Below are positions 1,446 through 31,652 of a stretch of DNA of 42,175 bases, piece by piece. A program made the position numbers and the translations under genes. Source of the stretch: Candidatus Micrarchaeota archaeon (GTDB lineage Archaea > Micrarchaeota > Micrarchaeia > Anstonellales > Anstonellaceae). A model generated the notes under the pieces. It saw only the letters and a list, made by a program, of their open reading frames with translations, was not told where the DNA came from and made no database searches. The first letter of the stretch is position 1. Each line of letters begins with the position of its first letter. The stretch is taken from assembly GCA_964458205.1 (NCBI GenBank), contig CAYWFJ010000003.1, forward strand, positions 1 to 42,175, written 5' to 3'.

Positions 1446-2183
1446 TTATTTTTTCCCGCCGCTTTCATCCTTTGCCCGCATGCCGCTATGCTCGAAGAAG
1501 AATGCTTTTTTTGCAGCAGGGTCTTTTTTCCTGCGCACACATCCATTGCCCTCGCCCTCATCCTTAGCGCGCCTGCCGTCGCTTAGCGGCTGCTGCGCGC
1601 CCAGCCCCTCTTTTTTGGCGACCATTTTGCGGGTAGCCGGGTCGAATACCTCTTTTGCCCCTATGGCTATTATTTTCGGCTCGCATGCGATGCCGAATAT
1701 TTTTTTCGCCCTGGCAGCCAGCTGCCCGATTCCGAAAAGCGGCGCGGAGGAGGTGCCGGATTCGCCTTCTGAATGGCATTCCAGGCAGAGGCGCCTGCCC
1801 TGGCTCATGTAAAGCGTCCCTGTTTCCCTGCCGCAGCGGTCGCAGGTTCCGCACATGCCGCCGCGCTCGGATGGAAGCCCGCCTGCGCCATGCGAGCCGC
1901 CTTCGTGCGAAAGGGCATTGCGCCCGCTTTGCCGGATTATCCTCTCCTCGTCCTGCACATCCATTATGCAATAGGCGCAGTATAGGCGCGAATTCCACAT
2001 GCGAAGCTCGTGCGGAGGAAGGTACATGCCGCAGCGCTGGCAGGGGACGTCCGTATTCTGGGCGGATTCGCAATTCTGGCAGATCATGTTCCCCCCATGG
2101 TCGAGCTCGCCGATGTGAGCGCCGCAGCGGATGCAGCATGTCATGGGGGAAGAATGGGTTTTGGGCAATAAATAGCTATCCAT
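1446..2183 (-). CDS. Multi-zinc-ribbon protein (several CxxC pairs), function unknown
   Basis: ORF 1446..2240, but the codon at 2240 is TTG. The first ATGs are at 2183 and 2144. Repeated CxxC...CxxC units: CIRCG..CQNC, CQRCG..CAYC, CGTCDRCG..CLEC. Convergent with pop5, with stops 4 nt apart. The start codon is uncertain. Confidence 0.55.
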   Translation of the reverse strand: MDSYLLPKTHSSPMTCCIRCGAHIGELDHGGNMICQNCESAQNTDVPCQRCGMYLPPHELRMWNSRLYCAYCIMDVQDEERIIRQSGRNALSHEGGSHGAGGLPSERGGMCGTCDRCGRETGTLYMSQGRRLCLECHSEGESGTSSAPLFGIGQLAARAKKIFGIACEPKIIAIGAKEVFDPATRKMVAKKEGLGAQQPLSDGRRAKDEGEGNGCVRRKKDPAAKKAFFFEHSGMRAKDESGGKK

Positions 2184-2510
2184 GGGCGCAGGAAAACCGC
2201 TGCATCCGCGATTGCCCCAAATGCGGCATCCGCAATCCAAGACGGAGAAAAAAATAAAGAAGCTAAAAGGTGCGAGAAATCGATTAAATCTGGCATAAGC
2301 ATCCCGATTTGATAAAAATAAAGGAAAGCGAAGCCAAAATGAGCTAAAACATTCATTGGAGTGTCTAATTGATAAAAAAGAGCTATTAGGGCTCTTTTTT
2401 TCAAAAAAAGCCTAATGATACCCACTTTCATGCCAAAACCGATTATAAATTCCCTTTTTTTTCGAATGCTGGAAATATTTATAAACAATAATGTGCTGAA
2501 TAGAAACATG

Positions 2511-3121: not shown

Positions 3122-5344
3122 TCATTTCCCTGGGCAGTCGCTGTCGCACTTGTCAACAGCATCAGCATAGATGGAGATAACTTCGGCGCCATAGGCATAG
3201 CCCTGCCCTTCGCCCGGGTTCGGATTCGGGCGGTTGCGCACATAGCGGATATAGTTCTCCTCGCCGCTGCAGGCTGAGCTGTTGTCGCGCTGGTGTATGA
3301 ACCCCGATATTGAGGGCGGCTGCAGGCCGAAATATTTGTTTGATGCAAGGTAATAAGCTGCCCAGCCGCGGTCCTCGTCCTTTATTCCGCCATCGCAGAC
3401 CCCGGTGCCAATCTGCCCCCAGTTGCTGCCGATGAACTGTTCCGCGCTGCTTAGGGCGGTTGCGAATTTGCTGACCCCGCAGCAGATGCTCATCTCGGGG
3501 TTGAACGGGTTGTAGTTCTCGCCTCCGCACTCCTGGACCACCTGCGGCATTGCAATGCCGTCCTGCACGTAAAGATGGCCTGGAAGCTCAATGCACTGCA
3601 TGAGGCCAAACGCGCAGCGCTTCTGCCCGGAGGGGCATTCGGAATGGCAGTCTGCCGGCGGAATCCCGGCTGCATCGCAGATTTCTGACATGTAATAGTA
3701 GTTCCTTGTGTCTTCCGGCGTGGTCGGGCGCTGGTTGTTGCAGGGCCTTGCAAGCGGCACGCAGAACGATGGCAGCGAAGGGTCGAAATGGCTTTCATGC
3801 TCTATTATCGAGCGGACGAATGTCGAGCTGATGTCCGCGCTGTCTGCGATTTCCTCTATCATTGGGTAAAGCGGGCAGTGGTCGGAGCTGAAAACCTGCC
3901 CTGCGAAATTGTCATAAATGCCTGCGGATTCGGATGACAGCTTCGTTTCCGAAACGCATACCTCGCCGCAGTTGAGGTTTGCGATTTTCTCAAGGGGCAG
4001 AACCTCGCCTTGCGCCATCTCCACGCCGACTTGCGTGTTTATTTCGGTTGAAACCACGTTGTACATCTTGCTGTTGTAGAAAAGCTCGCATTTGTCCCCA
4101 TATGCATTGCGGGAGAACATGAGGGGAGTCCGGTAGCTTGATGTCCCGAAATACTGGCACATCTGGGACCATGTATTGAGCGCAGGATGCTTCTGCTCGC
4201 CCGAAGGGTAAAGCACCCCGAAATCGCAACCCTGTATTCCGTTGCACGGAAGGGGCCCGGTGCGGTCTATGAACTCATACATGCTCATGCCTATTACCCC
4301 GGATGCCGCAAGATCCGAAGAAAGTGCGAAGAGGTTCTGGTAGAAGTTGCGCACCTTTGCGGCGCTCCAGGTGCAGCTGCCGTCGCTGCTGTTCCCTTCG
4401 CTTGCCCCGGCATAAAGCCATATTGTCGGCTTGAAATAGGTGCGCAGTATGTCGCGCGAGAAGAGGTAGTTCTGCCCGATTGCGTCGTCAATGCTGCAGG
4501 TCGGGTAATCGTTTGCGCGGAAACCGAAGCCTATAAGGTCCACCTTGTCATAATAGGGGTTTGTGCTGTCTTGCGTCGGGTCTGCCGGAGGGGGCCCGAT
4601 GACTCTTTCAATCGCATGCATATCCCCGGATTTTACCGCAAGGACGGTAAGGCACTTGTCGCACGTGCCAAGGGCGTCAATCTGCGCATGTATTGCCGAG
4701 ACGTCATCGCTCCCGTTGAGGAGTATTTCGGTCGTGAGAATGGCGGGCCCTGCGTTCCCGTCTTCGAAGATTTGTGCCATCTCCTGGAAATAAGCCGCAT
4801 CCATGCGGGTCTTGTTTGAATAATAAATATACAGCGGCAGCGCGTCCCGGTCAAGCCAGCACACCGCACGCGCGATATTTGGCATGCGCGGCGCCCTTGA
4901 CGGGCTGCTCACCACCCATTTTGTCGCAAGCTGCAGCGAATAGTTGCAATAAAGGTTCGCCATGCCGGTTGAAGCGAAGGAAGGCCCGTTGCCCACCATG
5001 AAAACGCGGGGGAATGACTCGTTGTTGAGGGTCTTGTTGATGAATTCCTCCTCGTTGCACTTCTCGAATTCGCACCTTCCGTCAACCAGGGTGATGTCAT
5101 ACCATGGCAAAAGGAAATTTTTTAGCCTTGCAAAGAAATTCGTGTTGTTCTTGCACATCATGCAATAGCAGGGCTGTGGGTCGTCTATTTCCAGGCAGGA
5201 CGGGTCGGCAAGATTGTTGAAGCGGGAAAATGTCATGTCGGTGTTGCCCATCTGCTCGTTTGCGGGCACATTTAGGGCGCATCCTGCCAAAAGGAAGAAT
5301 GCGGATAGGGCGGTTGCCAGCATAAATCGCGTTTTCAGGCTCAT
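3122..5344 (-). CDS. Secreted Cys-rich lipoprotein, 740 aa, with C-terminal SLT (lytic transglycosylase-like) domain split by a Cys-rich insert
   Basis: N-terminus MSLKTRFMLATALSAFFLLAGC is a signal peptide plus lipobox. About 34 Cys by hand count. SLT motifs occur in order: SIIEHESHFDP ... AFGLMQ ... GWAAYYLASNKY. The N-terminal ~480 aa show an alternating beta/alpha pattern (PLYIYYS, PAILTTE, LTVLAVK, VDLIGFGF, PTIWLYAG, VIGMSMYE), possibly a TIM-barrel hydrolase. The start overlaps the stop of the upstream giant gene (ATGA). Confidence 0.8.
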   Translation of the reverse strand: MSLKTRFMLATALSAFFLLAGCALNVPANEQMGNTDMTFSRFNNLADPSCLEIDDPQPCYCMMCKNNTNFFARLKNFLLPWYDITLVDGRCEFEKCNEEEFINKTLNNESFPRVFMVGNGPSFASTGMANLYCNYSLQLATKWVVSSPSRAPRMPNIARAVCWLDRDALPLYIYYSNKTRMDAAYFQEMAQIFEDGNAGPAILTTEILLNGSDDVSAIHAQIDALGTCDKCLTVLAVKSGDMHAIERVIGPPPADPTQDSTNPYYDKVDLIGFGFRANDYPTCSIDDAIGQNYLFSRDILRTYFKPTIWLYAGASEGNSSDGSCTWSAAKVRNFYQNLFALSSDLAASGVIGMSMYEFIDRTGPLPCNGIQGCDFGVLYPSGEQKHPALNTWSQMCQYFGTSSYRTPLMFSRNAYGDKCELFYNSKMYNVVSTEINTQVGVEMAQGEVLPLEKIANLNCGEVCVSETKLSSESAGIYDNFAGQVFSSDHCPLYPMIEEIADSADISSTFVRSIIEHESHFDPSLPSFCVPLARPCNNQRPTTPEDTRNYYYMSEICDAAGIPPADCHSECPSGQKRCAFGLMQCIELPGHLYVQDGIAMPQVVQECGGENYNPFNPEMSICCGVSKFATALSSAEQFIGSNWGQIGTGVCDGGIKDEDRGWAAYYLASNKYFGLQPPSISGFIHQRDNSSACSGEENYIRYVRNRPNPNPGEGQGYAYGAEVISIYADAVDKCDSDCPGK

Positions 5345-8300
5345 GCCTCTCCCCTCTTCCCGTATGCCGCCCTGGCTTCGGCATCGATTGCCTGCCTCTT
5401 TGCCTTAAACCGCAATGGTGAATACATTGAAAAGCCGTTTGCAAGCTCGGTGCCCACCATGGCAAGATAGGCGGGCCTGCGCTGCCTGTGCTTGCTGTGG
5501 TCGACAAGCGCAGTGTCAATCGAATGCCCTGTGAACTGCTCGAATTTCGAGTCAAAACCGTCTATGTGGCCCCCGCCATAGACGTAATTGGCATCTATCC
5601 TGCCCCCTGCATAATGGTAATGCGGCGCGTGCTCGGAAGCTGAAGCGGTGGATTTGCTTTCCCTGAATTTCTTGAACAGCAGACCCCGGATTACGCTTGA
5701 AATCGGGCTTGCCAGCATGAGCGTTCTTGTGTTTGTGAACGAATAATCCATCATCTCGGCTTGGAGCTTCATGGTATTGAGAAGAAGCGAAGTGTCGTCC
5801 TTGTAGACTCTTCTGTAGGCATCGGAGTGCGTTGAGAACCTGTCAGAGGAGGATTTCCATCTGCCCTTCTCGTCATATTCATCGGAATAGTAATGCTTCA
5901 TCACGGAAAGGGGGCCGCCGCTTGCCCGGTCCACCTCGGATGCGATTTGCGTGAAAGGGCTGTATTTGCCAGTCAGGAGGGACACGTCTATCATGCCCGG
6001 AACCATTGGCTTCCAGTAATTTGAATTGTGGTACGCGGAATAAAGCTCCATGAAGCGGTTCCGCGAGCCGTCTTCCTGTATGTCCCTGCCGCTGTGCCCT
6101 TCCCTGACTGAAACTGGCCTGCTGTCATATATTTTCGAAATCGGCTTGAAGTATTTTTTCCAAAGCTCCTCTTTCCGCGCATGGTCGTCTGTTGTGCGCC
6201 ATTCTTCGTATACTTCCAGCATCTTTGGGTCGCTTTTAAGCATCGTGTCGAGCTTGCGCTCGGCTTGGAGATACCTGTCAAGAGGGCGGGTAAGCCCGCT
6301 AAGAAGCGCCGGGGTTGCGTAGTGCTCGCTGTCTGTGAAAATGCTGCGCACGCCCCTGCGCACAATTCCTTCCTTGGTGGGGTCGCTTGGGCCTGCGCGC
6401 ATATATGCCCCTATGGCCACGCTGAGGGTGGATGAATCAAGCATGTTCTGCAGACGTGCGTGTGTATAGTCTGTCGGGACGGTGATAAGCGCCTTGAAAA
6501 TCGCAAGCTTGTCCTGCGTCCCCCATTTTGACCCGTTAAGCGAGTCTGTTTCGAAGTATGCTGGGTAAAACGAGCCTTTCCTTGCTCCGAAGCTTATGAA
6601 TTCGTTCTGGAACTTGTGCACGGTGCTCGCAAGCGAAATCGGGAGATGCATCGCCCGCTCCCATCCGGAGTTTATGGCCCAAAAAGTCGGGCGCTCATAT
6701 ACGTTCTGCCCGGTCTGGTATCCGACCATCATGGTATTCTCATAGCCCCCGCCTATTGCAACGCGCGGGTCCCTCATCACGCTCGATTCTGCAACCTGGA
6801 AAAAATCGCTTGCAAGCCCCTGCCGATAGCCGCTGTCAAAAAGCCCCATTACTGAAACCAGGTTCCGCCTGGAGCCGTACGGGGAATCGTGGGTCCCCAC
6901 CCAGTCCCTTGCGATGTCGTTCAATGCCTTGAATTCGTGCTTTGCGTCCGCATATGCCGCCTTGTATTCCTGCCTTATTGCCTTGGTTTCATCCTTGCGC
7001 GCAAGGTAATCCTCCCTGGAAATGAGCCTGTCCTTGTAAAGCGAATTGAGGGCCTTGTCCATGAGCTTTGCGGAATAGTATTTCGATTCCTCCGCAGCAA
7101 TTGCTTCCAGCGTATTTGCGGCAATACCCCTCCTGTAATTCCAGCCGACTGCCCAGGAGAATAACCCTCCGGAAGACTGTATCTTGCCCATTCGGTCGGC
7201 TATCAGGTCCTTTTGCTCGTCGCTCCCCCCTATCTTTTTGTATTCATCGGTATTGTTCTTATCAAAGAAATGGGTTTTTGGGTCGAATGTGAAGCGCTTG
7301 CCCCCAGCCCTCGTCTCCCCTTCCAATTCGTTCTTGAACTCCCAAAGCACGAATCTCGCCTGGGTCTGTGCGGTGTACCAGTTGCGCATGTTCTGCTTCC
7401 TTGTTTCATAGCCCGCGGTGACGAATTCCGACAAAGCGCTGCCCAAGGAAAGCTGCGCACGGATGACAGAGTTCCTGGATTTTGTATCCCCTGCGCCAAA
7501 CACGCCCTGGCTTTCAGGCTTGCCGGAGTATTTGAGGTCTGAGACTGTGACGGCCTTTACCTTTGCATTAGGGTCATAGCCCCCGCCGATTTGGGTGCCT
7601 GTGAGGGACATGCCTGCAAGCACCCGGAGGTCCTTGTTTGATTCGGCAAATGCCATTATCCCTGCGGTTGACGCATCCTTGCCTGGATGCGCATAAATCC
7701 AGCTTGCATCTCCCCCGGGGGTCTTATGCTGGACAAGTATTGCTATGTTCATCAATCGGTTCCCGTAGCTTGAGGATTCGTACCTTGAGATAAGCGGCGC
7801 CAGGTCTACGACCTTTCCTTTCCGGTAGACGCCATCCTCTATGCCGCAGGCTTTCAGGACGTCCTGGTTGTGCTCCAGCATCACCATTCCCCCCCTCCTG
7901 TCGGACGACAGCATGAAGCCGACCTTGCGCCTGTAGTCTGAGAAAGTGTAGCCCCTCTTGATAAGCTCGCTGTAGGCATCCCCGTTGAAAACGGGCTTTC
8001 CTTCTGCATCGTATTTCAGCTTGCCTTTCATGTCCACTGTTGTAAACTTGGCATCGTAATACTGGCTGTCCTTGTTCACCAATTGGGAAAAGAACATGGC
8101 AAGCATGCTGCGGTCCTCCCTTGCCTTGTTCAGGTATTTTGACATGTCGCTGTATACGAAGTTCGCCCATGTGGAGCCAGATAGGCCATGCCATGCGGCT
8201 TGTGATGCCATATTGTCCCAGCGCCTCGCCCGCAGAAGCGCCTCGTCAACCGAACGGTCGTATTGTATGTTCTGGGTCCTGAATTCAGCCCTCTTTGCCG

Positions 8301-11289
8301 CAAGCTCCGCAACCTCCCCTTCCCCGGCTTTGCGCTCCAAGAACCGCAGGTTGCCTGCTGAAAATGGGTCTTTGAGTATGCTGAAAACTTCCCGATTGCC
8401 CCTTTGGGGCCTGAAAAGCTCGGAAACACCGATTGCCCGGGCTTCCCATTGTTTCGCAAAGCTTGTGCCTTCATTGAGAAGATTGACGAATGCCCTTGCG
8501 GACACGGCTTCGGCCGCATGCGCCGCAGCCTGGCGCCGCACATCTTCAGGAATCTTGTCAGGAGGCACGCCCTTGGCAAGCCTTGCCTGCGCGGATGAAA
8601 GCTCGCCATGGTAAAGCGCCTGAAGCTCGGAGCCAAGCTTCCCGTCAATAACCGCCTGCGTCAGCCTTTCGAGGAAATGCTTCCTGCCTGCGCTGTTCGG
8701 CCGCATCAGGATGTCGAAATCATCCATGTCCTTTATTGAATAGGGGTTTCCGCCCTCGGAAACAATCCCAAGATGCTTCAGGCGGTCGTTGAGGTAAAAC
8801 GACAGCGGCCCGCCCTCGCCAAAAATGCACGCCTTCATCAGCCGGCTTACCCTCTCCTGGAAGCTCTCGTCTGCTTTTGCCTTGGAGCCTGAATTGATGC
8901 TGTCTGCGATGCCTTTCAGCTGGGAAAGGGCGGCTTCGCCGTCTTTCAGGTATTTTTCCTTGAAGCGGGCTGCCTTTGAATCGAAATCGGCTGCGGAGAG
9001 CTTAGATATGCCTTCGCCGAAAATCACGTCTATCTGCTTGTCCACCTTCTTAGCCAGCTCCCTGAAGGAAGGCAGGTTTGCCCTGTTCTCGACCAAAAGG
9101 GCGAAGCGCTCGGCTTCTTTCATCTTTTCTATGTCCGCCGGGGAGAGTTTTTTTCCGTTGGCGACCAGTGCGCCGCTTTCTGCCAATGCCTTAAGCTCCG
9201 CCTCGGCTTTCTTGAGAAGCGGGAAATTCCCTTTTTCATACGAGAGGTGGGTGCGCATTGATTCGACATCCTCTCGAGTCAGTGCCTTGAATTCCCCGTT
9301 TTTGAAATATATCATGCAGTCGCGGGCAAGCCCGCCTATGATGCCCGCAAGGAGCCCTGTCTGCTCCTCGATTTTCTTCCGCTCAGGCCCCTGCTTTTGG
9401 AGAGAAGCAAGCGCAAGGAGCGCTTTCTCAGGAGTAAGTGTCCCTGAATTGAGCCGTTCAATCACTCCTGAAACATCCGCTTCGCGTTTTTCGATGCCCG
9501 AGAGGAATGAAGCGATATGCGAAAATGCCTTCTTGTCGAGATTTTCAAGCCTTTCAAAGGCCTTCTTGGCGCTGTTAGGGTCAGACGTATTGAGGCTGGC
9601 AAGGATGCTATTGAGGGTGTCTTTCTGGTCCGATGTGAGCGATGGGTTTTTCAGGGCGCTTTTCACCAGCTTGATAGCCTCTTCGCGGGTTTCGTGGCTG
9701 CCGCGGGTCGAAACCTGGCTGATGAGAAGGGCCAGAAGCTGGTTGTACATTATGGTTGTGCTTGCCGCAAGGCCGATACGGTATTCCTCCGCCCTGTCGA
9801 GTATTTCGTTTTTCTTCTTGTCCGCAAAATCCGATTTCTTCATGAATTCGTCGAATTTCCCCGGGCTTAGCTTCTGGAATAAGGCGCCAAGGGAATTCTT
9901 GATGCGTTTCCCTGCGTCCTCTTTGTCCTGCTTGGTGAATGCAAGGAACGCAAGCGCGCGCCCGGTCTCCGAGCCTAGCCTCTTGGCGCCTATCTTGCTC
10001 GCCCTGAACTGCATGTATACGTCCATCGCCTTGACTGGGAGATTGACCACGCCCTTAACTATCGGGATTTTCTGTATGATGCGCGCGCCCTTGCTCTCGT
10101 CGAATGCGACCACTTTCTTCCTGGCGCGGTCAAGGCGGTTGTTCAGCCATTTCTCATAGCCCTTGCTCCCCCCGCCCCTTGCAAGCTTCAGTGCGCTGAC
10201 CAGCTGGTCCCCGGCAGCCATGACATGCGTCAGGCCTTCGCCGCCCATTTTTTGTATTGAATCCCATTTTTTTGCAACCCTGCCCGATGCATCTTTGGGC
10301 CTGCCGCGCAGTATTTCCCTAAGGATCGCATTTACCCTTTCCGACCCCTCTTTGCTGAGCGGCGAGCCGCCGGAAGTCTCCTTGTAGTATTCACGCAGCG
10401 CCTCTTTGACCTGTTCGCGGGCTTGGCGCCTTGCTTCCTTCCTGTCCTTCCCGCTTTTGCCCCGCGTCCGCATGTCCGCGGCCTCCCTTGCTGCGGTGAA
10501 AAGGGACTTGGTCGCCTTCCTGTTCTGGATTTCGACCCGCTTGATCATCGAATTTATCATCATGGGCAATGTCGGGCCTTTCAGCCTGTATTGCCTGCTT
10601 TTTGGGAGGCGGGGGGTGGTAAGGTCGAAAAGCGAGAGCGGATCCCTGCCGGAATAATACATTGAGGCAAGGAGCAGCCCCACGACAAGCATTGCCGGAA
10701 AGCAGTATGCTGCGTTTGAGGAAAGCGCCCCGGATATTGCCGGGCCAAGCGCAGATAAGGCGGCATTGTTCTTCGGGCAGGCGGTTATTGCCTGGAAGGA
10801 GGGCAGTATCGAAACCTCCCCGCTGGTGTTGCCTTCATAGCGGACCTGGAGAAGCCCGCATGATTTTTGGGACTCGATGTCGGCAACCCCCCCTGATGCG
10901 TTGATGTGATAGGCAAAAGAGCAGTTCGCTTCGCCTTTTGCGTTGGCGATTGCCGGGTTGCAGATGACGTTGCCGGATGAATCCGAGAGATTGTGCCCGT
11001 CAAAAGAGAAAATGAGGCGGGCTCCGGCAACTGGGGCAAACCCGAAGCGCACATCGTCTATGGATTCGTAGGATGACGGATCCATCAGGACGCCCACGTC
11101 CTGCTCCAGGCTTGGGGAAACCCTTTGGTGGAATTCGCTTGCGTTTGCAAAGCTTATCTTCACATAGGCGGTTTGGCCGGATGAAGAGATTGTGATGAAC
11201 GTGCGGGCGCCCTCGTCAGATGCGGGCAGCGCGCAATTGGCAGCGGAAAATAAAAGCAGCAGTATGAACAGCGGTGTTGCCCTGCGCAT
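5341..11289 (-). CDS. Giant membrane-anchored protein (~1982 aa): signal peptide, ~170-aa ectodomain, one TM helix, ~1750-aa charged/coiled cytoplasmic region
   Basis: ORF 5341..11313. ATG 11289 gives MRRATPLFILLLLFSAANCALP, a typical signal peptide, and fits a leaderless transcript from the TATA at 11313-11323. The ectodomain has Cys and N-x-S/T sequons (NAS, NLS, NCS, NAS, NTS). TM helix is AAYCFPAMLVVGLLLASMYYS, followed by K/R-rich sequence (positive-inside). A long KE-rich helical region follows. No Walker A seen by eye. Confidence 0.8.
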   Translation of the reverse strand: MRRATPLFILLLLFSAANCALPASDEGARTFITISSSGQTAYVKISFANASEFHQRVSPSLEQDVGVLMDPSSYESIDDVRFGFAPVAGARLIFSFDGHNLSDSSGNVICNPAIANAKGEANCSFAYHINASGGVADIESQKSCGLLQVRYEGNTSGEVSILPSFQAITACPKNNAALSALGPAISGALSSNAAYCFPAMLVVGLLLASMYYSGRDPLSLFDLTTPRLPKSRQYRLKGPTLPMMINSMIKRVEIQNRKATKSLFTAAREAADMRTRGKSGKDRKEARRQAREQVKEALREYYKETSGGSPLSKEGSERVNAILREILRGRPKDASGRVAKKWDSIQKMGGEGLTHVMAAGDQLVSALKLARGGGSKGYEKWLNNRLDRARKKVVAFDESKGARIIQKIPIVKGVVNLPVKAMDVYMQFRASKIGAKRLGSETGRALAFLAFTKQDKEDAGKRIKNSLGALFQKLSPGKFDEFMKKSDFADKKKNEILDRAEEYRIGLAASTTIMYNQLLALLISQVSTRGSHETREEAIKLVKSALKNPSLTSDQKDTLNSILASLNTSDPNSAKKAFERLENLDKKAFSHIASFLSGIEKREADVSGVIERLNSGTLTPEKALLALASLQKQGPERKKIEEQTGLLAGIIGGLARDCMIYFKNGEFKALTREDVESMRTHLSYEKGNFPLLKKAEAELKALAESGALVANGKKLSPADIEKMKEAERFALLVENRANLPSFRELAKKVDKQIDVIFGEGISKLSAADFDSKAARFKEKYLKDGEAALSQLKGIADSINSGSKAKADESFQERVSRLMKACIFGEGGPLSFYLNDRLKHLGIVSEGGNPYSIKDMDDFDILMRPNSAGRKHFLERLTQAVIDGKLGSELQALYHGELSSAQARLAKGVPPDKIPEDVRRQAAAHAAEAVSARAFVNLLNEGTSFAKQWEARAIGVSELFRPQRGNREVFSILKDPFSAGNLRFLERKAGEGEVAELAAKRAEFRTQNIQYDRSVDEALLRARRWDNMASQAAWHGLSGSTWANFVYSDMSKYLNKAREDRSMLAMFFSQLVNKDSQYYDAKFTTVDMKGKLKYDAEGKPVFNGDAYSELIKRGYTFSDYRRKVGFMLSSDRRGGMVMLEHNQDVLKACGIEDGVYRKGKVVDLAPLISRYESSSYGNRLMNIAILVQHKTPGGDASWIYAHPGKDASTAGIMAFAESNKDLRVLAGMSLTGTQIGGGYDPNAKVKAVTVSDLKYSGKPESQGVFGAGDTKSRNSVIRAQLSLGSALSEFVTAGYETRKQNMRNWYTAQTQARFVLWEFKNELEGETRAGGKRFTFDPKTHFFDKNNTDEYKKIGGSDEQKDLIADRMGKIQSSGGLFSWAVGWNYRRGIAANTLEAIAAEESKYYSAKLMDKALNSLYKDRLISREDYLARKDETKAIRQEYKAAYADAKHEFKALNDIARDWVGTHDSPYGSRRNLVSVMGLFDSGYRQGLASDFFQVAESSVMRDPRVAIGGGYENTMMVGYQTGQNVYERPTFWAINSGWERAMHLPISLASTVHKFQNEFISFGARKGSFYPAYFETDSLNGSKWGTQDKLAIFKALITVPTDYTHARLQNMLDSSTLSVAIGAYMRAGPSDPTKEGIVRRGVRSIFTDSEHYATPALLSGLTRPLDRYLQAERKLDTMLKSDPKMLEVYEEWRTTDDHARKEELWKKYFKPISKIYDSRPVSVREGHSGRDIQEDGSRNRFMELYSAYHNSNYWKPMVPGMIDVSLLTGKYSPFTQIASEVDRASGGPLSVMKHYYSDEYDEKGRWKSSSDRFSTHSDAYRRVYKDDTSLLLNTMKLQAEMMDYSFTNTRTLMLASPISSVIRGLLFKKFRESKSTASASEHAPHYHYAGGRIDANYVYGGGHIDGFDSKFEQFTGHSIDTALVDHSKHRQRRPAYLAMVGTELANGFSMYSPLRFKAKRQAIDAEARAAYGKRGEA

Positions 11290-11312
11290 GGTTGCTTTTT
11301 GGAAATCCTGCA

Positions 11313-11323
11313 TTTATATATTA
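11313..11323. promoter_or_regulatory. Shared bidirectional TATA box for the two divergent operons
   Basis: TTTATATATTA sits in the 69-nt spacer between ATG 11289 (minus) and ATG 11359 (plus). It is about 25 nt from ATG 11289 and about 25 nt from the GGAGG SD at 11346-11350. Confidence 0.55.
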
Positions 11324-11358
11324 TGATGCTTTAATCATTGCAACTGGAGGGCTGGCGG

Positions 11359-12732
11359 ATGCTTGATTTCATTCTCATGACCCCTGAAATGCTCCTTTCA
11401 AGCTCGGGCGTCCTCATAGCCCTTGCCACTGCGATATCCATCATTGCCCTCTCGTTCATGGCGGGTGAATTCTTCTCAATGCCCACTCTCCGCGGATTTG
11501 CAAAGGCGGAACTCTATGAGCTTGGCGTAACCGCAGTCGTGATTGCCATATCCATAATGCTCATAACCCCGGGGGGGCCGTTCGACATGATTACGCGCGG
11601 CTTTCTGGATCCGGGAACCCCTGCGGATAGGGCATGCAAGGAATGGAAATCAATCCATGGGCAATACGACCCGGTTTCGGGGAATTACCCGGACGGCAAC
11701 CTCGCTTTTGCGCATGCGGACTATTTCATAGGGTGCAGGGTGGATTTCCTGACCCAGATGACATCGGCACTCACCTTGGGCATCCTGGACACGAACAGCG
11801 GGATAATGATAGCCAAGCTGACCACCGCCTACATGAACCTGATGCTGATGGAGTTTTTCATGGGGTTCCTCTCCACGGTCAATTTCCATCTGACGATTCA
11901 GACGCCCATATTGATAGGGATAGACATAGGGTTGCCGCCCCACGCCGGGCTCACCCCGCTGCTGGAATTCAACACCACCCTTACGGACATGGTGGGCAGC
12001 ACCATTGCCGCGATGACCGCAAAGAAGATGCTGCTGAATTTCATAGAGGAGAATGCAATCGGGGTTTTCCTGGTGCTTGGCATTTTCCTGCGCGCGCTCC
12101 CGTTCACCCGGAAAACCGGGTCCACGATAATAGCGATTGTGTTTGCCGCCTATTTCGTTTTTCCGACATCGGTTCTCCTGAACCAGCAGATATGGCGGGC
12201 GATAGAAAACCCCCCTGGCCCGCCAGGCTGCCTAGAGGTCGGGACTGCGTGCACGGCGGATTCGGAATGCTGCTCAGGCAATTGCGCAATGGGGGCGGGC
12301 AGATGCGCTGCGATGCTGAGCGATTTTGACCATGTGAAATCGTTCATAAACACGTGCTACGGAAAAAGCGAGGCTGAAGTCCGCGATTCGCTTGACAGCC
12401 AGGCGCAGCACCAGCAGGCCCAGCTGGAGCAGTATTTTGACGACCAGGGAGAGGAGGCAGTATCCACAAGAACCACCAGCCGCCTCAAAAGCTCGCTTGG
12501 CACTGCGGGAAACGTCATAGTCGGCCCGATGCTCAGCATGAACATCCCCATCGGGAGCGGCCCGCTGACTTTCGGGTTTGTCGAAAAGGCCATGAATGAC
12601 ATGGGCAGGCTCATGCTCATAATATTGATATTCACAGTGATAGAAATACTGGTCACCATAACCCTCATGAAGGACTTTGCCATCATGATAGGCGGTGAAC
12701 CGCGGGTTCTTGGCATAAGCAAGCTGGTGTGA
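11359..12732 (+). CDS. Polytopic membrane protein, paralogue P1 of 6 (LRxxPxTRxxG family, unnamed), with knottin-like 6-Cys loop
   Basis: ORF 11338(TTG)..12732. ATG 11359 is preceded by GGAGG. Multiple hydrophobic helices. Core motif FLRALPFTRKTGSTIIAIVFAAYFVFP (from 12088). Loop CLEVGTACTADSECCSGNCAMGAGRC (12229-12306). C-terminal TM plus tail IGGEPRVLGISKLV. Confidence 0.8.
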   Translation: MLDFILMTPEMLLSSSGVLIALATAISIIALSFMAGEFFSMPTLRGFAKAELYELGVTAVVIAISIMLITPGGPFDMITRGFLDPGTPADRACKEWKSIHGQYDPVSGNYPDGNLAFAHADYFIGCRVDFLTQMTSALTLGILDTNSGIMIAKLTTAYMNLMLMEFFMGFLSTVNFHLTIQTPILIGIDIGLPPHAGLTPLLEFNTTLTDMVGSTIAAMTAKKMLLNFIEENAIGVFLVLGIFLRALPFTRKTGSTIIAIVFAAYFVFPTSVLLNQQIWRAIENPPGPPGCLEVGTACTADSECCSGNCAMGAGRCAAMLSDFDHVKSFINTCYGKSEAEVRDSLDSQAQHQQAQLEQYFDDQGEEAVSTRTTSRLKSSLGTAGNVIVGPMLSMNIPIGSGPLTFGFVEKAMNDMGRLMLIILIFTVIEILVTITLMKDFAIMIGGEPRVLGISKLV

Positions 12733-12734
12733 CC

Positions 12735-13658
12735 ATGGCGTTTGGGGGATTCATCCTGGAAATTTTTGCTGCGGGGGGCATCGGAGATGTCGCGCTGTCC
12801 CTTTTCGCGGTTTCCATAGCAGTAATGGCTTCGATAATCGCGCTTGCCTACATGGCATCGCAATTCTTCAGGAAGCCCGAATACGAGGGTTTTGTAACAC
12901 TTGAGATATACCAGCTCATCGTATCCGTCCTGCTGTTCGTCTCAATAGGGGGGGTCGCGGTTTTTGCAAATTCCCTGATGTATGCGTTTTCTGGCTCTGA
13001 CCCGATAGACACGGGCAGAGCATATCTCTCATATGTAAGCGAGCAGATTGCGCTTCCGGTTATGGTCGGGTTTGAGACATTGAAGCTCACAATGCAATTC
13101 ATAGGTTCGATAAGCATGAGATGGGGCGCCAGCGTGTGGGGGGTGGTGATGGTCCCTTTCGGGGCATGCCAGGTGCTTGAAAAGGTGGCGGACGTTATCC
13201 TGATGATATCGGTGCCATTCATATCAAGCCTCCAGGTGCAGATGGTAATCCTCGAAATGATTGAGGGTTTGGCGCTCTCATTCGTCCTCCCTGCTGGCGC
13301 GCTTCTTAGGATATTCCCCCCGACAAGGGACGCGGGCACCTTCCTGATGTGCTCCGCGCTTGCAGCGCTCACGGTCTACCCGTTCACATATGTGATGCAT
13401 GACAAGATAGTCAGGGTGATGGTGTCTGGTGAAAGCGAGAATCCGACAGCAAACGACATGCTTCAGAGCCAAAACCCCGGATTTGCAAGGGTAATGTCCG
13501 CAAGCTGGGCGATTGACCCGGAAAAAATGCTGTTCAGGCCCCTGCGCCTCCTAAGCTACCTTGTCCTTCAGGGGGCTTTCCTGCCTGCGCTGAGCATGGT
13601 CATAACCATTTCGTTCATAAAAGGAACCACCAAATTCGTGAGCCAGAAATTCGGGTGA
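12735..13658 (+). CDS. Polytopic membrane protein, paralogue P2 of 6
   Basis: The start (GTG 12729 or ATG 12735) overlaps or abuts the P1 stop. Core motif LLRIFPPTRDAGTFLMCSALAALTVYPFTYV (13305 onward). The N-terminal TM region aligns by eye with P1 and P6 (..IIALAYMASQFFRKPEYEGF..). Confidence 0.78.
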   Translation: MAFGGFILEIFAAGGIGDVALSLFAVSIAVMASIIALAYMASQFFRKPEYEGFVTLEIYQLIVSVLLFVSIGGVAVFANSLMYAFSGSDPIDTGRAYLSYVSEQIALPVMVGFETLKLTMQFIGSISMRWGASVWGVVMVPFGACQVLEKVADVILMISVPFISSLQVQMVILEMIEGLALSFVLPAGALLRIFPPTRDAGTFLMCSALAALTVYPFTYVMHDKIVRVMVSGESENPTANDMLQSQNPGFARVMSASWAIDPEKMLFRPLRLLSYLVLQGAFLPALSMVITISFIKGTTKFVSQKFG

Positions 13659-13662
13659 GCCT

Positions 13663-13779
13663 TTGGGTAAACCGGACGCATCCTCAAAAACGGCGCTTCT
13701 TGCCCTCTTTCTTGCATTAGCCATGCTGGCTTGCGGATGCACCGGCTCTGATGGGGGGCAAAGCGGTATAGTCCTGTAG
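13663..13779 (+). other. 38-codon lipoprotein-signal-like ORF in the same frame as P3, ended by TAG 13777-13779 (N-terminal extension of P3, or a micro-ORF)
   Basis: TTG 13663 is preceded by GGGTGA (13653-13658). The product is MGKPDASSKTALLALFLALAMLACGCTGSDGGQSGIVL*. The P3 reading frame continues directly after the TAG. This piece resembles the N-terminal extension of P4 (MMKTPTARQAAFAIALVAIALAMFASMPCG). Confidence 0.5.
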
Positions 13780-13806
13780 ATTTTTGGTTGGGAAAACCTC
13801 GTTGCA

Positions 13807-14973
13807 GTGGCTCTTGCCGCAACAGCAAGCCTTTTGGGCCTTGCATATATCGCCGCATCTTTTGTGAATGATGACAAGCTTAAGGCATGGGTCAAAAAAG
13901 AGGCAGGGCAGCTGGTTTTCTCAATTATGATAATAATATGCGCAATTGCGATCGTTGACAGCATGGATTTCTGGCTTAAAACATTCAGCCTTGCAGGCTC
14001 TCCGGCCTGGCAGGACTATGTTGGAAACCACATATGCTGCGACCCTGCCGTTGTGCCCCAGTGCCAGGCGGGGCTATGGAAACGCCCGTGCCATGTGGAG
14101 CTCGCGATGGACCACCTGCAGTTTGTCTATGAGACCCTGCGGAAGAATGTCATGACTTATCTTTGGAATTACTCGGCCATTGCAACGCTTGCCAATCTCC
14201 ACACCAGCATAAACATCATGAATAGGCCCGACTTCGGGAGCCTGAGCCTGAGCCCGTTAACCTACCTGTCCGCAGGAGTTGACTATTTCACCATACTCAT
14301 TGGGCTTGCAACCAAAGCCATGATGATGACCCGCACGCAGCAGGCAGCCCTGGATTATCTGCATTATCCAGTATTCGGGGCTTTCATGTCCATGGGGCTC
14401 GTGCTGCGCATACTCCCATTCACAAGAAAATTGGGGGGCATGCTAATAGCCATATCGCTTTCGTTGTATGTGGTCCTGCCGATGTTTTACGTCCTAAACA
14501 GCGCAATATTATGGGGCTTCATTGCGGCGCCTGCAGGGGGAACGCCCTCAACAGTGGGGGCGTCATACGACACCGGCGCATATACGCCCGGGTATGGCGC
14601 AGGGGAAGCTGAAAACTATGATGCGGTTGACCCTGAGAATGTCCTTGAAGGGGGCTATGTTGCGAATATAGACGTATGCAACAGCACAGGGGCCGATGCC
14701 GAACAGGCAAGGGCTGAAAGGCAGCAGGATGAGGGATTTATCCAAAGCAACTGGAAAATGATGCGCGGGACAAAGTGGCATGCCGGCCTGCAGACAATGC
14801 TTACCGGCCCCGGGCTCTCGTATGATGGCCCGCTCGGGGTCCTTGCGATGATAATGGTATTCTCGACCGTGCTCCCGTTCCTTGGACTGATGACTTCGCT
14901 TGCCGCATTCAAGGTCCTTTCCCCGCTGCTCGGGGGGGATGTCGAGTTAGGGCTGCTCTCGAGGCTGATATGA
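13807..14973 (+). CDS. Polytopic membrane protein, paralogue P3 of 6 (possibly disrupted or read-through; see 13663..13779)
   Basis: ORF from GTG 13807, which has only a weak SD. Core motif VLRILPFTRKLGGMLIAISLSLYVVLPMFYV. Cys- and sequon-containing loops (HICCDPAVVPQCQ, CNSTG). Tail LGGDVELGLLSRLI. The stop overlaps the P4 start (ATGATG). Confidence 0.7.
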   Translation: MALAATASLLGLAYIAASFVNDDKLKAWVKKEAGQLVFSIMIIICAIAIVDSMDFWLKTFSLAGSPAWQDYVGNHICCDPAVVPQCQAGLWKRPCHVELAMDHLQFVYETLRKNVMTYLWNYSAIATLANLHTSINIMNRPDFGSLSLSPLTYLSAGVDYFTILIGLATKAMMMTRTQQAALDYLHYPVFGAFMSMGLVLRILPFTRKLGGMLIAISLSLYVVLPMFYVLNSAILWGFIAAPAGGTPSTVGASYDTGAYTPGYGAGEAENYDAVDPENVLEGGYVANIDVCNSTGADAEQARAERQQDEGFIQSNWKMMRGTKWHAGLQTMLTGPGLSYDGPLGVLAMIMVFSTVLPFLGLMTSLAAFKVLSPLLGGDVELGLLSRLI

Positions 14974-16292
14974 TGAAAACTCCCACTGCAAGGCAGGCTG
15001 CTTTCGCAATTGCGCTGGTCGCCATCGCGCTGGCGATGTTCGCAAGCATGCCTTGCGGAAATTATTTCGGGTTTGACGTTTTCGGCACCAACCCGCCTAA
15101 CGTGGTCACCTGCGACCAGCCGGCAAACGGACTTTTCTGGCTTGAGCTCACCATAATCGCGCTTGCGCTCTCGGTGGCGCTCGTCTCTGCAGCCTGGATA
15201 CTCAACGGCGTTTTTGGCGGCCCGAAATACAACGAATTCCTGAAAGAGCGCCTATGGAGCATGCTTGAGACCGCGGTGATAATGGGCATTTTCATAGCCA
15301 TGCTGGTTTCGCTCCAGCAATATGGGAACGACAATCTCGACACGGCGAGGGCATACACAAAAATAATACGGAATAGCGCGGTGGAGGATTTTGGGAAAAC
15401 GATAGCGGGAACTGCCCTGTTTTCATTCGTATCGAATGCCAACCCGAAAATACACCTTTTCAAGGGCCATTTCGGGTCCTATATCGATTTCCAGCTGGCA
15501 CCCATGTTCAAGCCGATATTCGACATGATGGGGCTGATAATACAGCTCCAGACCACGGTTGTGCTTCAGTGGTTTGCCCATGACTACCTGCTCTGTTTTG
15601 CAAAAAACTACCTGCTGACCCTCCTTTTGCCAGTCGGGCTTTTCCTTCGCGGGATGGGCATCAAAACCGCAGGCAACGCCATGATGGGGGTTGCGATTGC
15701 CCTTTATTTTGTCTATCCGTTCATGATTGTCCAAATAGGGGAGATGGTCACAAAACACTATGAGAATGAGATTTCGGCGCTCACCATTGCAGAGGGCAAC
15801 ATACACCTGAGCCTTTGCTTCAGCAGCAAGCCCATATGCTGCATGGGCGGGACCCCTGACCCGGTCAACGATACCCTGGTCATACCGAACGGGAATGGGT
15901 TCATAAGCGTCAAAAAAGTCCTTACCAACCCCCTCCTTGGTTGCAGCTACTCGACAACCAATGTAAGGATATGGGAAAGCGCGGGAGGGGTGGTGGCAAG
16001 CAGCGCAGCCTTCATGCTGATGAAAGCCATGATGTCCGGCTCGGGCACGTCATCGAGCAGCACGGGCTTGAGCACCGCTTCAGGGTTCATGAATATCCTG
16101 ATGCTGCTGGCCCTTTTCCCGCCCATGGTGATGCTGGTGCTTAGCTTCATATACGGGCTTGCTTATTTCTTCTTCATCGTAAGCATGGTGCTGCCGATAT
16201 TCGCCATATTCATAACTCTCACGCTCGCAAAGGAGATTACCAAGGCGCTTGGGACGGAAATAGACCTTTCAGCGCTTGAAAAGCTGATATGA
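14970..16292 (+). CDS. Polytopic membrane protein, paralogue P4 of 6 (with extra N-terminal signal/anchor)
   Basis: ATGA overlap with P3. Divergent core FLRGMGIKTAGNAMMGVAIALYFVYPFMIV. Cys loop SLCFSSKPICCMGG..VNDT. S/T-rich stretch SGSGTSSSSTGLSTASG. Tail LGTEIDLSALEKLI. Confidence 0.78.
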   Translation: MMKTPTARQAAFAIALVAIALAMFASMPCGNYFGFDVFGTNPPNVVTCDQPANGLFWLELTIIALALSVALVSAAWILNGVFGGPKYNEFLKERLWSMLETAVIMGIFIAMLVSLQQYGNDNLDTARAYTKIIRNSAVEDFGKTIAGTALFSFVSNANPKIHLFKGHFGSYIDFQLAPMFKPIFDMMGLIIQLQTTVVLQWFAHDYLLCFAKNYLLTLLLPVGLFLRGMGIKTAGNAMMGVAIALYFVYPFMIVQIGEMVTKHYENEISALTIAEGNIHLSLCFSSKPICCMGGTPDPVNDTLVIPNGNGFISVKKVLTNPLLGCSYSTTNVRIWESAGGVVASSAAFMLMKAMMSGSGTSSSSTGLSTASGFMNILMLLALFPPMVMLVLSFIYGLAYFFFIVSMVLPIFAIFITLTLAKEITKALGTEIDLSALEKLI

Positions 16293-16307
16293 GGACAGGG
16301 TGCCATA

Positions 16308-17366
16308 ATGGGATTGAACATTGCCGAAAACATCTGCGCCCCCATCCTGTCCGGGGCCCCGTCGGATTTTCCTGGAAGTTTCGGGATTCTTGGCGCTGAC
16401 TGGCTGCAGCTGACTTTCCTTGCCCTCCTTGCATCGCTCCTAGCTCTTTCTATAATATACATGCTTTCATTCTTCCTTAAGCAGAACGCAGCAGCAGCGT
16501 GGGCGAAATTCGAGCTCTTCCAGCTTTTTGCAACAGCCATGCTGGTGGTCATGACCTCTTCCGTGCTGATAGTCGGGATGTGCTCGTTTGACATGCGCAT
16601 TCTTGACCCGGACAGATATGCGGATCCGCAAAACCCGAATCGGCCCATGAACATGCTGGATATTGTGGACAGGTATTTTGGCGAGCTTGAGAAGGCGGGC
16701 GGGATGCTTTTTGCCGCCTTCCTGTTCATCATCAATATCCTGACCAACCTATTCAAGGCGATGTTCCTAAGCTCGCCACTGGGAGTGGGGGGCAATGAAA
16801 GCCCTCTTGAATCGCTTATGCAGCTCAACAACATGTTCTTCATCCTGATAAGCGGATTCGTCATCTCGTTCCTCATGCTTGGCGTGCAGACCAGGATGGT
16901 GGAGTACATCAGCATAGCTGCGCTCTATTACCTGTTTCCCTTCGGGGTTTTTTTCAGGGCGTTTGAGCCGACCCGCGCTTTTGGCGGAACCCTGATAGGC
17001 CTCTCAATCTCCCTTTTCCTGTTCTACCCCGCCCTCCTGGTTTTCAACGACTATGTTGTTTACGGGCCGGTTTCCGAAATCAACCAGGAGCTGGAAGATA
17101 GCATAGATAGGGGCGACACGCAGGTTTCTGGGCAGCAAGGCGGGATGCCCGACAGCCAGGTAATAGTGAATGGAATAGAAAGCGGCGACCTGGCATCCGG
17201 GATAGGCGGTTCCGTCCTTGTGGTTTTCAAGCCGCTCATGCTGTATTTCGTGGCAGCGGTCGTCCTGCCCATAATCAATTTCATAATACTGGTGGAAGTT
17301 GCAAGGGGGCTCACGCGCCTCCTGGGAGAAGAGGTGGACATAACCAACCTCACGAGGCTGATATGA
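16308..17366 (+). CDS. Polytopic membrane protein, paralogue P5 of 6
   Basis: ATG 16308 is preceded by GGGTG. Core FFRAFEPTRAFGGTLIGLSISLFLFYPALLV. Tail LGEEVDITNLTRLI. The stop overlaps the P6 start. Confidence 0.78.
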   Translation: MGLNIAENICAPILSGAPSDFPGSFGILGADWLQLTFLALLASLLALSIIYMLSFFLKQNAAAAWAKFELFQLFATAMLVVMTSSVLIVGMCSFDMRILDPDRYADPQNPNRPMNMLDIVDRYFGELEKAGGMLFAAFLFIINILTNLFKAMFLSSPLGVGGNESPLESLMQLNNMFFILISGFVISFLMLGVQTRMVEYISIAALYYLFPFGVFFRAFEPTRAFGGTLIGLSISLFLFYPALLVFNDYVVYGPVSEINQELEDSIDRGDTQVSGQQGGMPDSQVIVNGIESGDLASGIGGSVLVVFKPLMLYFVAAVVLPIINFIILVEVARGLTRLLGEEVDITNLTRLI

Positions 17367-18361
17367 TGGCATTTGATTTGACTTCGTCCGGATGGATAGG
17401 CATTTCGGTGCTCGTGGCCCTGGTTTCCCTCTTCATCACCGTGCTTTTGCATATGCTCGCCCAGGCGTTCAGCCTCCAGAGCCTTGGCATGTGGGCAAAA
17501 TCCGAATATGCACAGGTGGCGGTCAGCTTCCTGATAATCTTCTTCGCGGCAGTGATGCAAAGCGCAGGTGCGGAAGTGGTCAGCCAGGTCACAGCCGAAG
17601 TTGCGGCGGCATCGGGGAACATGATGCTCACCTCCAGCATGTCGGCGAATATGGACCCGGTGGAAATAGCCAAGGCGTACATAAACAAAATCACCGGTTG
17701 CCAAATAACGCTTTACAAAATAGCATACTGGCTCAACTTCATCATGGAGCCGCTGAGCAAAATCAGCCTGGAGGCCATGGGTTTTGAAGGGATTACTGGG
17801 GGCGCCCTCTCAGGATATGTCTCTTTTTTCCACTACGTAATGAATAACCTTACATATGTGATCCTCTTCAACTATGTCCAATACAGCGTGCTTCTGCTCT
17901 CTAAATACTCCATGCTTTACCCGGTACTCCCAATCGGTCTTGTTCTTCGCGCGTTCGCGCCGACCAGGGGGGTTGGAGGGCTGATGGTTGCGTTCGCGCT
18001 TGGCTTCGCATTCGTGTTCCCATTCACGTACGTGCTGGTGGTTGCAATAACCCCGAACACCACATACACCATGTGCAATGAGATAACCCTAACCGCTGGC
18101 GATTTGCCACAAAAAGACGAGCAGCCTTGCTACAACAGCAAGGCGGGAACAAGGGAACAGTCTTTCAGGCTAAAAAGCAACATGCAGAAAATATCCGGGA
18201 TAGTCGGATTCATGCAGAATGCGATAGGGATAATCTTTCTGCAGGCGGTAATCTACCCATTGGTCTCGTTGATTATGACTTTCACGTTCATCAGGCAGAC
18301 CAGCTCGCTGTTCGGAGCCGACCTTGCAGAGATAGGGCGCGGGCTCATCAAGATAATATAG
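17363..18361 (+). CDS. Polytopic membrane protein, paralogue P6 of 6
   Basis: ATGA overlap with P5. Core VLRAFAPTRGVGGLMVAFALGFAFVFPFTYV. Loop TPNTTYTMCNEITL..QPCYNS. Tail FGADLAEIGRGLIKII. Confidence 0.78.
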   Translation: MMAFDLTSSGWIGISVLVALVSLFITVLLHMLAQAFSLQSLGMWAKSEYAQVAVSFLIIFFAAVMQSAGAEVVSQVTAEVAAASGNMMLTSSMSANMDPVEIAKAYINKITGCQITLYKIAYWLNFIMEPLSKISLEAMGFEGITGGALSGYVSFFHYVMNNLTYVILFNYVQYSVLLLSKYSMLYPVLPIGLVLRAFAPTRGVGGLMVAFALGFAFVFPFTYVLVVAITPNTTYTMCNEITLTAGDLPQKDEQPCYNSKAGTREQSFRLKSNMQKISGIVGFMQNAIGIIFLQAVIYPLVSLIMTFTFIRQTSSLFGADLAEIGRGLIKII

Positions 18362-31633: not shown

Positions 31634-31652
31634 GAAAATCAACTTAAGAAAT

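Follow-up and report, generated by a model that had tools for sequence, protein, structure and literature searches.

Family-1 lytic transglycosylases (LTs; glycoside hydrolase family GH23, PF01464), such as MltE, MltC and Slt70 of Escherichia coli and MltF of Pseudomonas aeruginosa, are the closest described systems for the protein analysed here, a 740-residue lipoprotein encoded on the minus strand of a 42,175-nucleotide stretch of DNA from a Candidatus Micrarchaeota archaeon (GenBank assembly GCA_964458205.1, contig CAYWFJ010000003.1; hereafter, the window). The C-terminal part of the lipoprotein is like these enzymes in fold and in the order and register of its motifs, and lipoprotein anchoring is common to it and the Mlt enzymes. 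In comparison with them, it adds about 48 residues with 4-6 cysteines, about 15 predicted disulfides, an N-terminal TIM barrel and an archaeal host, and its sequence is too diverged for database-scale hidden Markov model searches to reach the bacterial SLT domains. As judged from sequence and predicted structure, this C-terminal domain genuinely belongs to the GH23/SLT domains despite its great divergence, and its set of catalytic motifs is intact.

The occurrence of SLT/GH23 domains in DPANN archaea is already known. In Woesearchaeota and Pacearchaeota, SLT proteins that are large and extracellular have been described as fam00969 (PMC8204110) and as GH23 proteins (PMC9723730). They too represent DPANN proteins with an extracellular LT domain, and they have been read as mediating interaction with bacterial walls. 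However, those proteins are up to 3000 residues long, are recognisable by Pfam and have been reported only in the two lineages, whereas the Micrarchaeota proteins, of 700-1000 residues, join a TIM barrel to the SLT domain and are core and syntenic, which sets them apart by description. For individual metagenome-assembled genomes of Micrarchaeota, GH23 and an M23B peptidase have been listed in passing (PMC8561730). Modular peptidoglycan hydrolases of archaea, such as the M23 proteins of Halogranum salarium (PMC12352652), are likewise secreted and have murein-cleaving catalytic domains, and some of the Micrarchaeota relatives carry an M23 domain. The distribution of those hydrolases is patchy; their genes are often found on plasmids and clearly came from bacteria recently, and the proteins are equipped with cell-wall-binding domains; by contrast, the Micrarchaeota family is vertically inherited, lies on the chromosome beside housekeeping genes and is without known binding modules. 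No description of a Micrarchaeota-wide family of TIM+SLT lipoproteins, of its Cys-rich insert or of its pairing with a giant protein was found in the literature searched.

Hydrolases of the PrgK/VirB1 type, known from conjugation and type IV secretion, offer one more comparison. They contain an SLT domain, sometimes together with M23/LytM and NlpC/P60-CHAP domains, and are encoded beside membrane-protein genes; in contrast to such systems, ATPases of type IV secretion systems, a coupling protein and pilins were not found near the gene described here.

Domain architecture of the lipoprotein

The features of the gene, all on the minus strand and in coordinates of the window, are as follows.

3122..5344, minus strand: lipoprotein gene, complete, 740 residues, two-domain, 34 Cys (open reading frame list and homologues)
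5279..5344, minus strand: signal peptide and lipobox, residues 1-22, ...FFLLAG followed by C22 (K4/R6, hydrophobic core, L-A-G-C)
5048..5197, minus strand: N-terminal Cys-rich beta-hairpin module, residues 50-99, with C50, C59, C64, C91 and C96 (invariant Cys columns)
4025..5047, minus strand: (beta/alpha)8 TIM barrel, glycoside-hydrolase-like, residues ~100-440 (AlphaFold2 model and Foldseek)
4727-4729 and 4397-4399, minus strand: codons of E206 (end of beta4) and E316 (after beta7), respectively
3125..3889, minus strand: divergent SLT/GH23 (family-1 LT-like) domain, residues 486-740
3779..3811, minus strand: motif I, SIIEHESHFDP, residues 512-522 (Glu517 codon 3794-3796, then Ser518)
3614..3778, minus strand: 55-residue 6-Cys insert between motifs I and II, residues 523-577
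3596..3613, minus strand: motif II, AFGLMQ, residues 578-583 (GLMQ = 580-583)
3467..3514, minus strand: YNPF...S.CCG..K motif, residues 611-626, counterpart of DPxxNI..G..YL of family-1 LTs (hhalign register)
3326..3364, minus strand: WAAYYLASNKYFG, residues 661-673, in which Y671-x-G673 corresponds to motif III, AYNxG (hhalign register)
3332-3364, minus strand: WAAYYLASNKY, residues 661-671

The assignment of the C-terminal domain to SLT holds at the level of the family, because Pfam matches of homologues, profile alignment by hhalign and structure comparison by AlphaFold and Foldseek agree. Thus, the SLT signature with motifs I and II in the proper order, which an earlier note on this DNA had recognised by eye, is borne out. 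Pfam SLT matches 25 of the 44 aligned close homologues (best E 4.3e-7; matches counted at E ≤ 0.1), and it exceeds the gathering threshold of 21.3 bits in the diverged relatives P0118 (32.9 bits), P0136 (35.6), P0154 (29.9) and P0181 (27.8). Alignment of the C-terminal family profile by hhalign with a profile of five E. coli family-1 LT domains (Slt70, MltC, MltD, MltE and MltF, taken from NC_000913.3) gave Prob 88% and E 3.1e-6. In the resulting register, E517-S518 falls on the catalytic ES and the A-x-G-L-x-Q of the family on GLMQ, with the insert unaligned; Y-N-P-F..S..C-G falls on DPxxNI..G, and the Tyr and Gly of AYNxG are matched by Y671-x-G673. The motif II coordinates of the earlier note (3596-3613) are exact, whereas motif I spans 3779-3811 instead of ~3783-3812. 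As to the third motif, AYNAG, its counterpart by register is Y671-x-G673 and not the AAYY stretch; the sequence here is S-N-K-Y-F-G, in which only Y671 and G673 match A-Y-N-x-G.

The AlphaFold2 model of residues 474-740 has a predicted local distance difference test score (pLDDT) of 94.6 and a predicted template-modelling score (pTM) of 0.91, and it points to the goose-lysozyme fold that the earlier note had suspected. Among the top 50 Foldseek matches of this model in the PDB, 49 are GH23 chains (48 LTs and goose lysozyme), a chain of the T7 ejectosome being found at rank 40. The GH23 matches, which include MltF, MltE, Slt, MltC, Slt70 and goose lysozyme, have probabilities of 0.9-1.0, and the named matches in the viral structure library searched with Foldseek (BFVD) are almost all SLT/LT_GEWL lysins.

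Conservation was counted in the 44 close homologues and in 159 full-length relatives with 25-50% identity. Glu517, which together with Ser518 is located at the C-terminus of helix 507-517 in the model, is kept in 42/44 and 146/159 sequences, respectively, and Ser518 in 41/44 and 136/159, with Thr in a further 11 relatives. In motif II, G580 is present in 44/44 and 158/159 and Q583 in 43/44 and 146/159; in motif III, Y671 is present in 44/44 and 140/159, and G673 in 115/159 relatives. The intervening YNPF motif is similarly constant, with P613 in 157, F614 in 149, C621 in 152 and G623 in 145 of the 159 relatives. As far as sequence comparison can tell, the active-site residues are under selection across the whole range of identities covered.

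The segment that splits motifs I and II is exactly 55 residues long (523-577) and contains six cysteines (C528, C535, C556, C566, C570 and C577), precisely as first counted in the earlier note. Its statement that about a dozen residues separate these motifs in bacterial enzymes also holds: between the ES and the G of GLMQ there are exactly 13 residues in all five E. coli LTs, as compared with 61 here, so that the net expansion of this loop is ~48 residues. Of the 159 aligned relatives, 158 have such an insert, 39-186 residues long with a median of 62, the remaining row having a length of 0. Four cysteines are found in the insert of 75 members and six in that of 66; such even counts are compatible with disulfides, and in the single member that lacks C556 and C566 these two are jointly missing. 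In the model, where its pLDDT is ~92-97, the insert consists of a strand (528-530), a loop, a helix (552-558) and a second strand (574-576). These strands appear to be the equivalents of the beta-hairpin found after the catalytic helix in GH23 enzymes, in which case the insert is most simply an excursion at the tip of that hairpin and would add to one wall of the substrate groove without blocking the groove. The disulfide-stapled insert characterises the family as a whole, beyond this one sequence, and elaborates the GH23 fold in a new way.

The N-terminus of the protein, MSLKTRFMLATALSAFFLLAG followed by C22, forms a signal peptide ending in a lipobox, the pattern [LVI][ASTVI][GAS]C being satisfied by residues 19-22 (L-A-G-C). 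G21 and C22 are invariant in the 44 homologues and are kept in 130-133 of the 159 relatives, which suggests that the protein is lipidated at C22. The 34 cysteines lie mostly in invariant columns, and the Cys-rich module that follows the signal peptide contains strands 59-65 and 91-96 in the model. About 15 disulfides are predicted, and the Cys content is as expected for an exported, disulfide-stabilised enzyme. The archaeal origin of the lipoprotein, proposed earlier, is confirmed by a Pfam scan of the window proteins, which identified L15e, the RNase P subunits Rpp30 and Pop5, fibrillarin and SecDF, as well as by the closest match at NCBI, a 98%-identical partial relative from 'Candidatus Micrarchaeia archaeon'.

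The suggestion that a TIM-barrel hydrolase precedes the SLT domain is likewise supported. In the full-length AlphaFold2 model (pLDDT 88.1, pTM 0.87), eight strand/helix units occupy approximately residues 110-400, and Foldseek matches this barrel to GH2, GH26, GH10, GH5 and GH113 enzymes of clan GH-A at E 3e-6 to 4e-5; the GH26 beta-1,3-xylanase 2ddx, for example, has a target-normalised template-modelling score of 0.54. Like the glycosidases of clan GH-A, the barrel has the (beta/alpha)8 fold, a Glu at the end of beta4 and, in this subfamily, a Glu after beta7. E206, which follows strand 201-206, is kept in 43/44 close homologues and 152/159 relatives. It differs from the clan in being preceded by Thr (T-E, versus N-E), and hhalign of the N-terminal profile with the TIM domain of E. 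coli UidA gave Prob 0.1%, i.e., no sequence similarity. E206, and E316, located after strand 307-313, are assigned from strand order only. None of the Pfam GH families matched the lipoprotein or its 44 homologues. In our opinion, it is plausible from the model that the two residues form the 4/7 catalytic Glu pair of clan GH-A in this subfamily, the pair not being a constant of the whole family.

Family and gene neighbourhood

At 40-50% identity to the lipoprotein, 54 full-length homologues are available, most of them annotated as 'hypothetical protein'. An exhaustive profile search of 1.84 billion cluster representatives returned 290 proteins at E ≤ 1e-3, 251 of them at E ≤ 1e-10; the family thus comprises at least 250 clusters at 50% identity, and the TIM+SLT architecture is kept in essentially all full-length representatives. 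A further homologue search with a broad alignment gave, within its capped number of candidates, just the close family members found before, and another that started from the distant member P0188 added one protein. All named members belong to Micrarchaeota (Micrarchaeia, Anstonellaceae, Bilamarchaeaceae, Ca. Gugararchaeum and Ca. Burarchaeum), and one GTDB locus of the family is labelled Woesearchaeota. The comparison of neighbourhoods covered 23 GTDB genomes plus four other contigs, and the lipoprotein gene is shown to be vertically conserved across Micrarchaeota as a core, syntenic gene. Two neighbouring features of the window are relevant here.

5341..11313, minus strand: gene of a 1990-residue giant membrane-anchored protein, upstream of and co-oriented with the lipoprotein gene (open reading frame list, transmembrane scan)
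11338..18361, plus strand: six tandem paralogous polytopic membrane-protein genes, divergent from the pair (paralogy and transmembrane predictions)

Wherever the flank is long enough, a same-strand gene of 1500-2200 codons precedes the lipoprotein gene, and in the window the stop of this giant gene overlaps the lipoprotein start by 4 nt. The giant protein has a signal or transmembrane segment at residues 11-33, an ectodomain of ~160 residues, a transmembrane segment at 197-215 and then a long K/R-flanked remainder of ~1775 residues, which is probably cytoplasmic. It carries the conserved juxtamembrane motif PLSLFDLTTPRLPK and has no family assignment; scans of both the giant protein and the lipoprotein against NCBIfam and PHROGs gave nothing meaningful. 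The adjacency of the two genes persists from 48% to ~26% identity. Moreover, in Ca. Gugararchaeum, where the other neighbours all differ, a 1512-residue homologue that shares the juxtamembrane motif with the giant protein of the window (BLASTP E 9e-12) is still found directly upstream, which argues that the giant protein and the lipoprotein form a conserved unit.

The other conserved neighbours are the block of polytopic paralogues, divergently upstream, and an S-adenosylmethionine (AdoMet) decarboxylase gene downstream. The six membrane paralogues, of 309-464 residues with 4-6 predicted transmembrane segments, are related to one another at pairwise BLASTP E-values of 1e-4 to 3e-16 and had no match in Pfam, NCBIfam or PHROGs. 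Four of them (m1-m4) are syntenic with the pair in ~15 Micrarchaeota loci; beside the pair in locus L033, the paralogues are absent. Because housekeeping genes are equally syntenic, the link of the pair to the membrane paralogues is weaker, and a functional connection between them is no more than a possibility, the association being syntenic only.

Substrate and competing explanations

Domains fused to the TIM+SLT core in relatives of the lipoprotein bear directly on its substrate. An additional C-terminal Peptidase_M23 domain is present in P0077, P0097, P0118, P0136 and P0154 (E 1e-14 to 6e-18) and is borderline in P0101, while P0181 has an NlpC/P60 domain (E 1.2e-8). These members come from Ca. 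Gugararchaeum, Ca. Burarchaeum and Micrarchaeia, and the gene of the M23-bearing P0097 likewise sits downstream of a giant gene. Such repeated fusion of M23 or NlpC/P60 to the core is, in our opinion, the strongest indication at hand that the substrate is bacterial peptidoglycan. Thus, among the targets listed in the earlier note (a bacterial neighbour, pseudomurein or another glycan), murein is favoured by the fusions, whereas pseudomurein has been down-weighted, both on account of its chemistry and because of the same M23 and NlpC/P60 domains.

A different extension is seen in P0029 (917 residues, 43% identical to the lipoprotein), which has an extra C-terminal tail of ~200 residues with no Pfam match. 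By eye, the tail looks like an SGNH/GDSL-type esterase (…VLYTGVNDD…DPVH…). Should it be a real esterase, it could be an accessory domain of the peptidoglycan O-acetyl-esterase type.

We consider it rather probable that the lipoprotein is an extracellular, membrane-tethered, disulfide-rich enzyme with two glycan-cleaving domains, which digests the murein of bacterial neighbours. The SLT domain would cleave the beta-1,4 bond between N-acetylmuramic acid (MurNAc) and N-acetylglucosamine (GlcNAc) in the peptidoglycan backbone, with Glu517 as the single acid/base, acting either as a lytic transglycosylase, which would yield 1,6-anhydro-MurNAc, or like a g-type lysozyme. The TIM barrel would trim a glycan, with E206 as the acid/base and, in this subfamily, E316 as the nucleophile. 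In this way the murein of bacterial neighbours may be opened or digested at the archaeal surface, whether to attach or gain access to bacteria as hosts or prey, or to scavenge wall fragments. Archaeal peptidoglycan hydrolases of the M23 type have been shown experimentally to kill bacteria (PMC12352652). Remodelling of an own sacculus is unlikely, as a cultured Micrarchaeon has an S-layer and no genes for a wall polymer of its own (bioRxiv 10.1101/2021.04.28.441871).

It should be noted that a number of observations weigh against the digestion of bacterial murein by this protein. The hosts of cultured Micrarchaeota are wall-less Thermoplasmatales (PMC5864196), and weaponised archaeal peptidoglycan hydrolases have a patchy, plasmid-biased distribution (PMC12352652) that is unlike the core, syntenic and vertically inherited pattern of the present family. 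The remaining points concern the protein itself. In the Pfam comparison proposed in the earlier note, the lipoprotein alone scores 13.4 bits against PF01464 (E 0.059), below the cut-off, by a stretched match in which residues 495-633 cover profile positions 2-82; it is at the level of the family that this comparison succeeds. Searches of PDB chains by phmmer and by hmmsearch with two alignments gave no match even at E ≤ 10, and because these were empty, the link to the fold has been drawn from Pfam on relatives, hhalign and Foldseek. The best Foldseek match of the C-terminal model has E 1.5e-3, none being ≤ 1e-3, with target-normalised template-modelling scores of at most ~0.5. Murein-binding modules (LysM, SH3, PG_binding) were not detected in Pfam scans of the protein and its homologues, and two homologues, P0027 and P0052, are without the Glu-Ser pair. 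In the barrel, 35/44 close homologues have E316, compared with no more than 56/159 relatives. A literature search on the lipoprotein gene in acidophilic cultured Micrarchaeota (Micrarchaeum, Mancarchaeum) found nothing.

Some of these points would fit an enzyme that acts on a glycan other than murein, such as pseudomurein, chitin-like poly-GlcNAc, or glycans of the S-layer or elsewhere on the surface of an archaeal host, so that its role would lie in archaeon-archaeon contact or polysaccharide scavenging and not in attack on bacteria. The wall-less hosts reported in the source just mentioned, the absence of murein-binding modules from the Pfam scans and the status of a core gene, as opposed to a sporadic weapon, all agree with this explanation, as does the barrel, which resembles xylanases, mannanases and glucuronidases and not muramidases. 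GH23 also includes chitinases, and MltE binds chitopentaose (PDB entry 4hjy, one of the Foldseek matches). Nevertheless, the M23 and NlpC/P60 domains fused to orthologues are typical murein peptidases, the M23-bearing P0097 retains its giant-protein neighbour, and the motifs, as a set, are those of the family-1 murein LTs. Pseudomurein in particular has beta-1,3 links, and its talosaminuronic acid, with a carboxylate at C6, has no C6 hydroxyl from which a 1,6-anhydro product could be formed. We therefore regard a non-murein substrate as unlikely, while a purely non-catalytic function is, in our view, very improbable. The SLT-like domain would in that case be dead or glycan-binding only, and the protein an adhesin or a structural surface protein, as might be argued from its extreme divergence from canonical SLTs, from the large insert adjoining the active site and from the loss of Glu-Ser in the two homologues. 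However, Glu, Ser, GLxQ and Tyr are kept in ~90% or more of the 159 relatives despite their low identity, a pattern expected of an active enzyme.

The remaining explanation concerns the setting of the enzyme more than its chemistry. The lipoprotein may be the wall-opening part of a Micrarchaeota-specific envelope apparatus that also contains the giant protein and possibly the six paralogues, and is analogous to VirB1 or PrgK; the three components together would then constitute an undescribed Micrarchaeota-wide machine for contacting or penetrating partner cells. The 4-nt overlap of the giant and lipoprotein genes and the persistence of the pair down to ~26% identity and in Ca. Gugararchaeum agree with this idea, as do the synteny of the membrane paralogues in ~15 loci and the set of SLT, M23 and NlpC/P60-type domains, which recalls the multidomain hydrolases of the PrgK type. 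On the other hand, VirB4/VirD4-type ATPases, pilins and secretion families were undetected in the neighbours by Pfam, NCBIfam and PHROG; the genes for AdoMet decarboxylase, RNase P and L15e are as syntenic as the membrane paralogues, synteny being weak evidence in small genomes; and the paralogues are absent beside the pair in L033. The existence of such an apparatus, and likewise of the three-component machine, is doubtful on present evidence. Membership of the lipoprotein in the VirB1 group itself was rejected, as no secretion-system ATPase was found in the gene cluster and such membership is consequently unsupported.

Other genes of the window and implications for Micrarchaeota

The overlapping open reading frames at 3162-3530 (minus strand), 3490-3798 (minus strand) and 4187-4819 (plus strand), which come from a program-made list, were rejected as genes, because the 740-residue frame is the one conserved in 290 relatives. 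No tRNA genes were detected across the whole 42-kb window. At 1446-2240 (minus strand), a Cys-rich protein with many CxxC pairs (zinc-ribbon-like) and a weak DUF7685 match is encoded; in loci L001, L003 and L004, the equivalent syntenic position is taken by a similarly sized gene. The 328-residue product of 22489-23475 (plus strand), which has an N-terminal helix-turn-helix and a weak LAGLIDADG_3 match, may be a domesticated or free-standing regulator resembling homing endonucleases. A second giant open reading frame at 25391-30943 (minus strand), of 1850 residues with 15 Cys, no predicted transmembrane segment and no Pfam match, follows the gene for fibrillarin (30977-31642) directly downstream. 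In archaea, nop5 is the usual partner of that gene; no Nop5 was recognised here.

Surveys that apply Pfam or CAZy thresholds miss the large family of the lipoprotein, with its at least 250 clusters, so that archaeal peptidoglycan hydrolases have been undercounted in the literature. A phylum-wide exported enzyme with what appears from its sequence to be an intact LT active site would be a testable hint that Micrarchaeota routinely process bacterial walls. In culture, Micrarchaeota are known only as partners of wall-less archaea. If the enzyme were, moreover, the murein-cutting head of an envelope machine, it would imply a life on bacteria, and not on archaea, for most Micrarchaeota found outside acid mine drainage.

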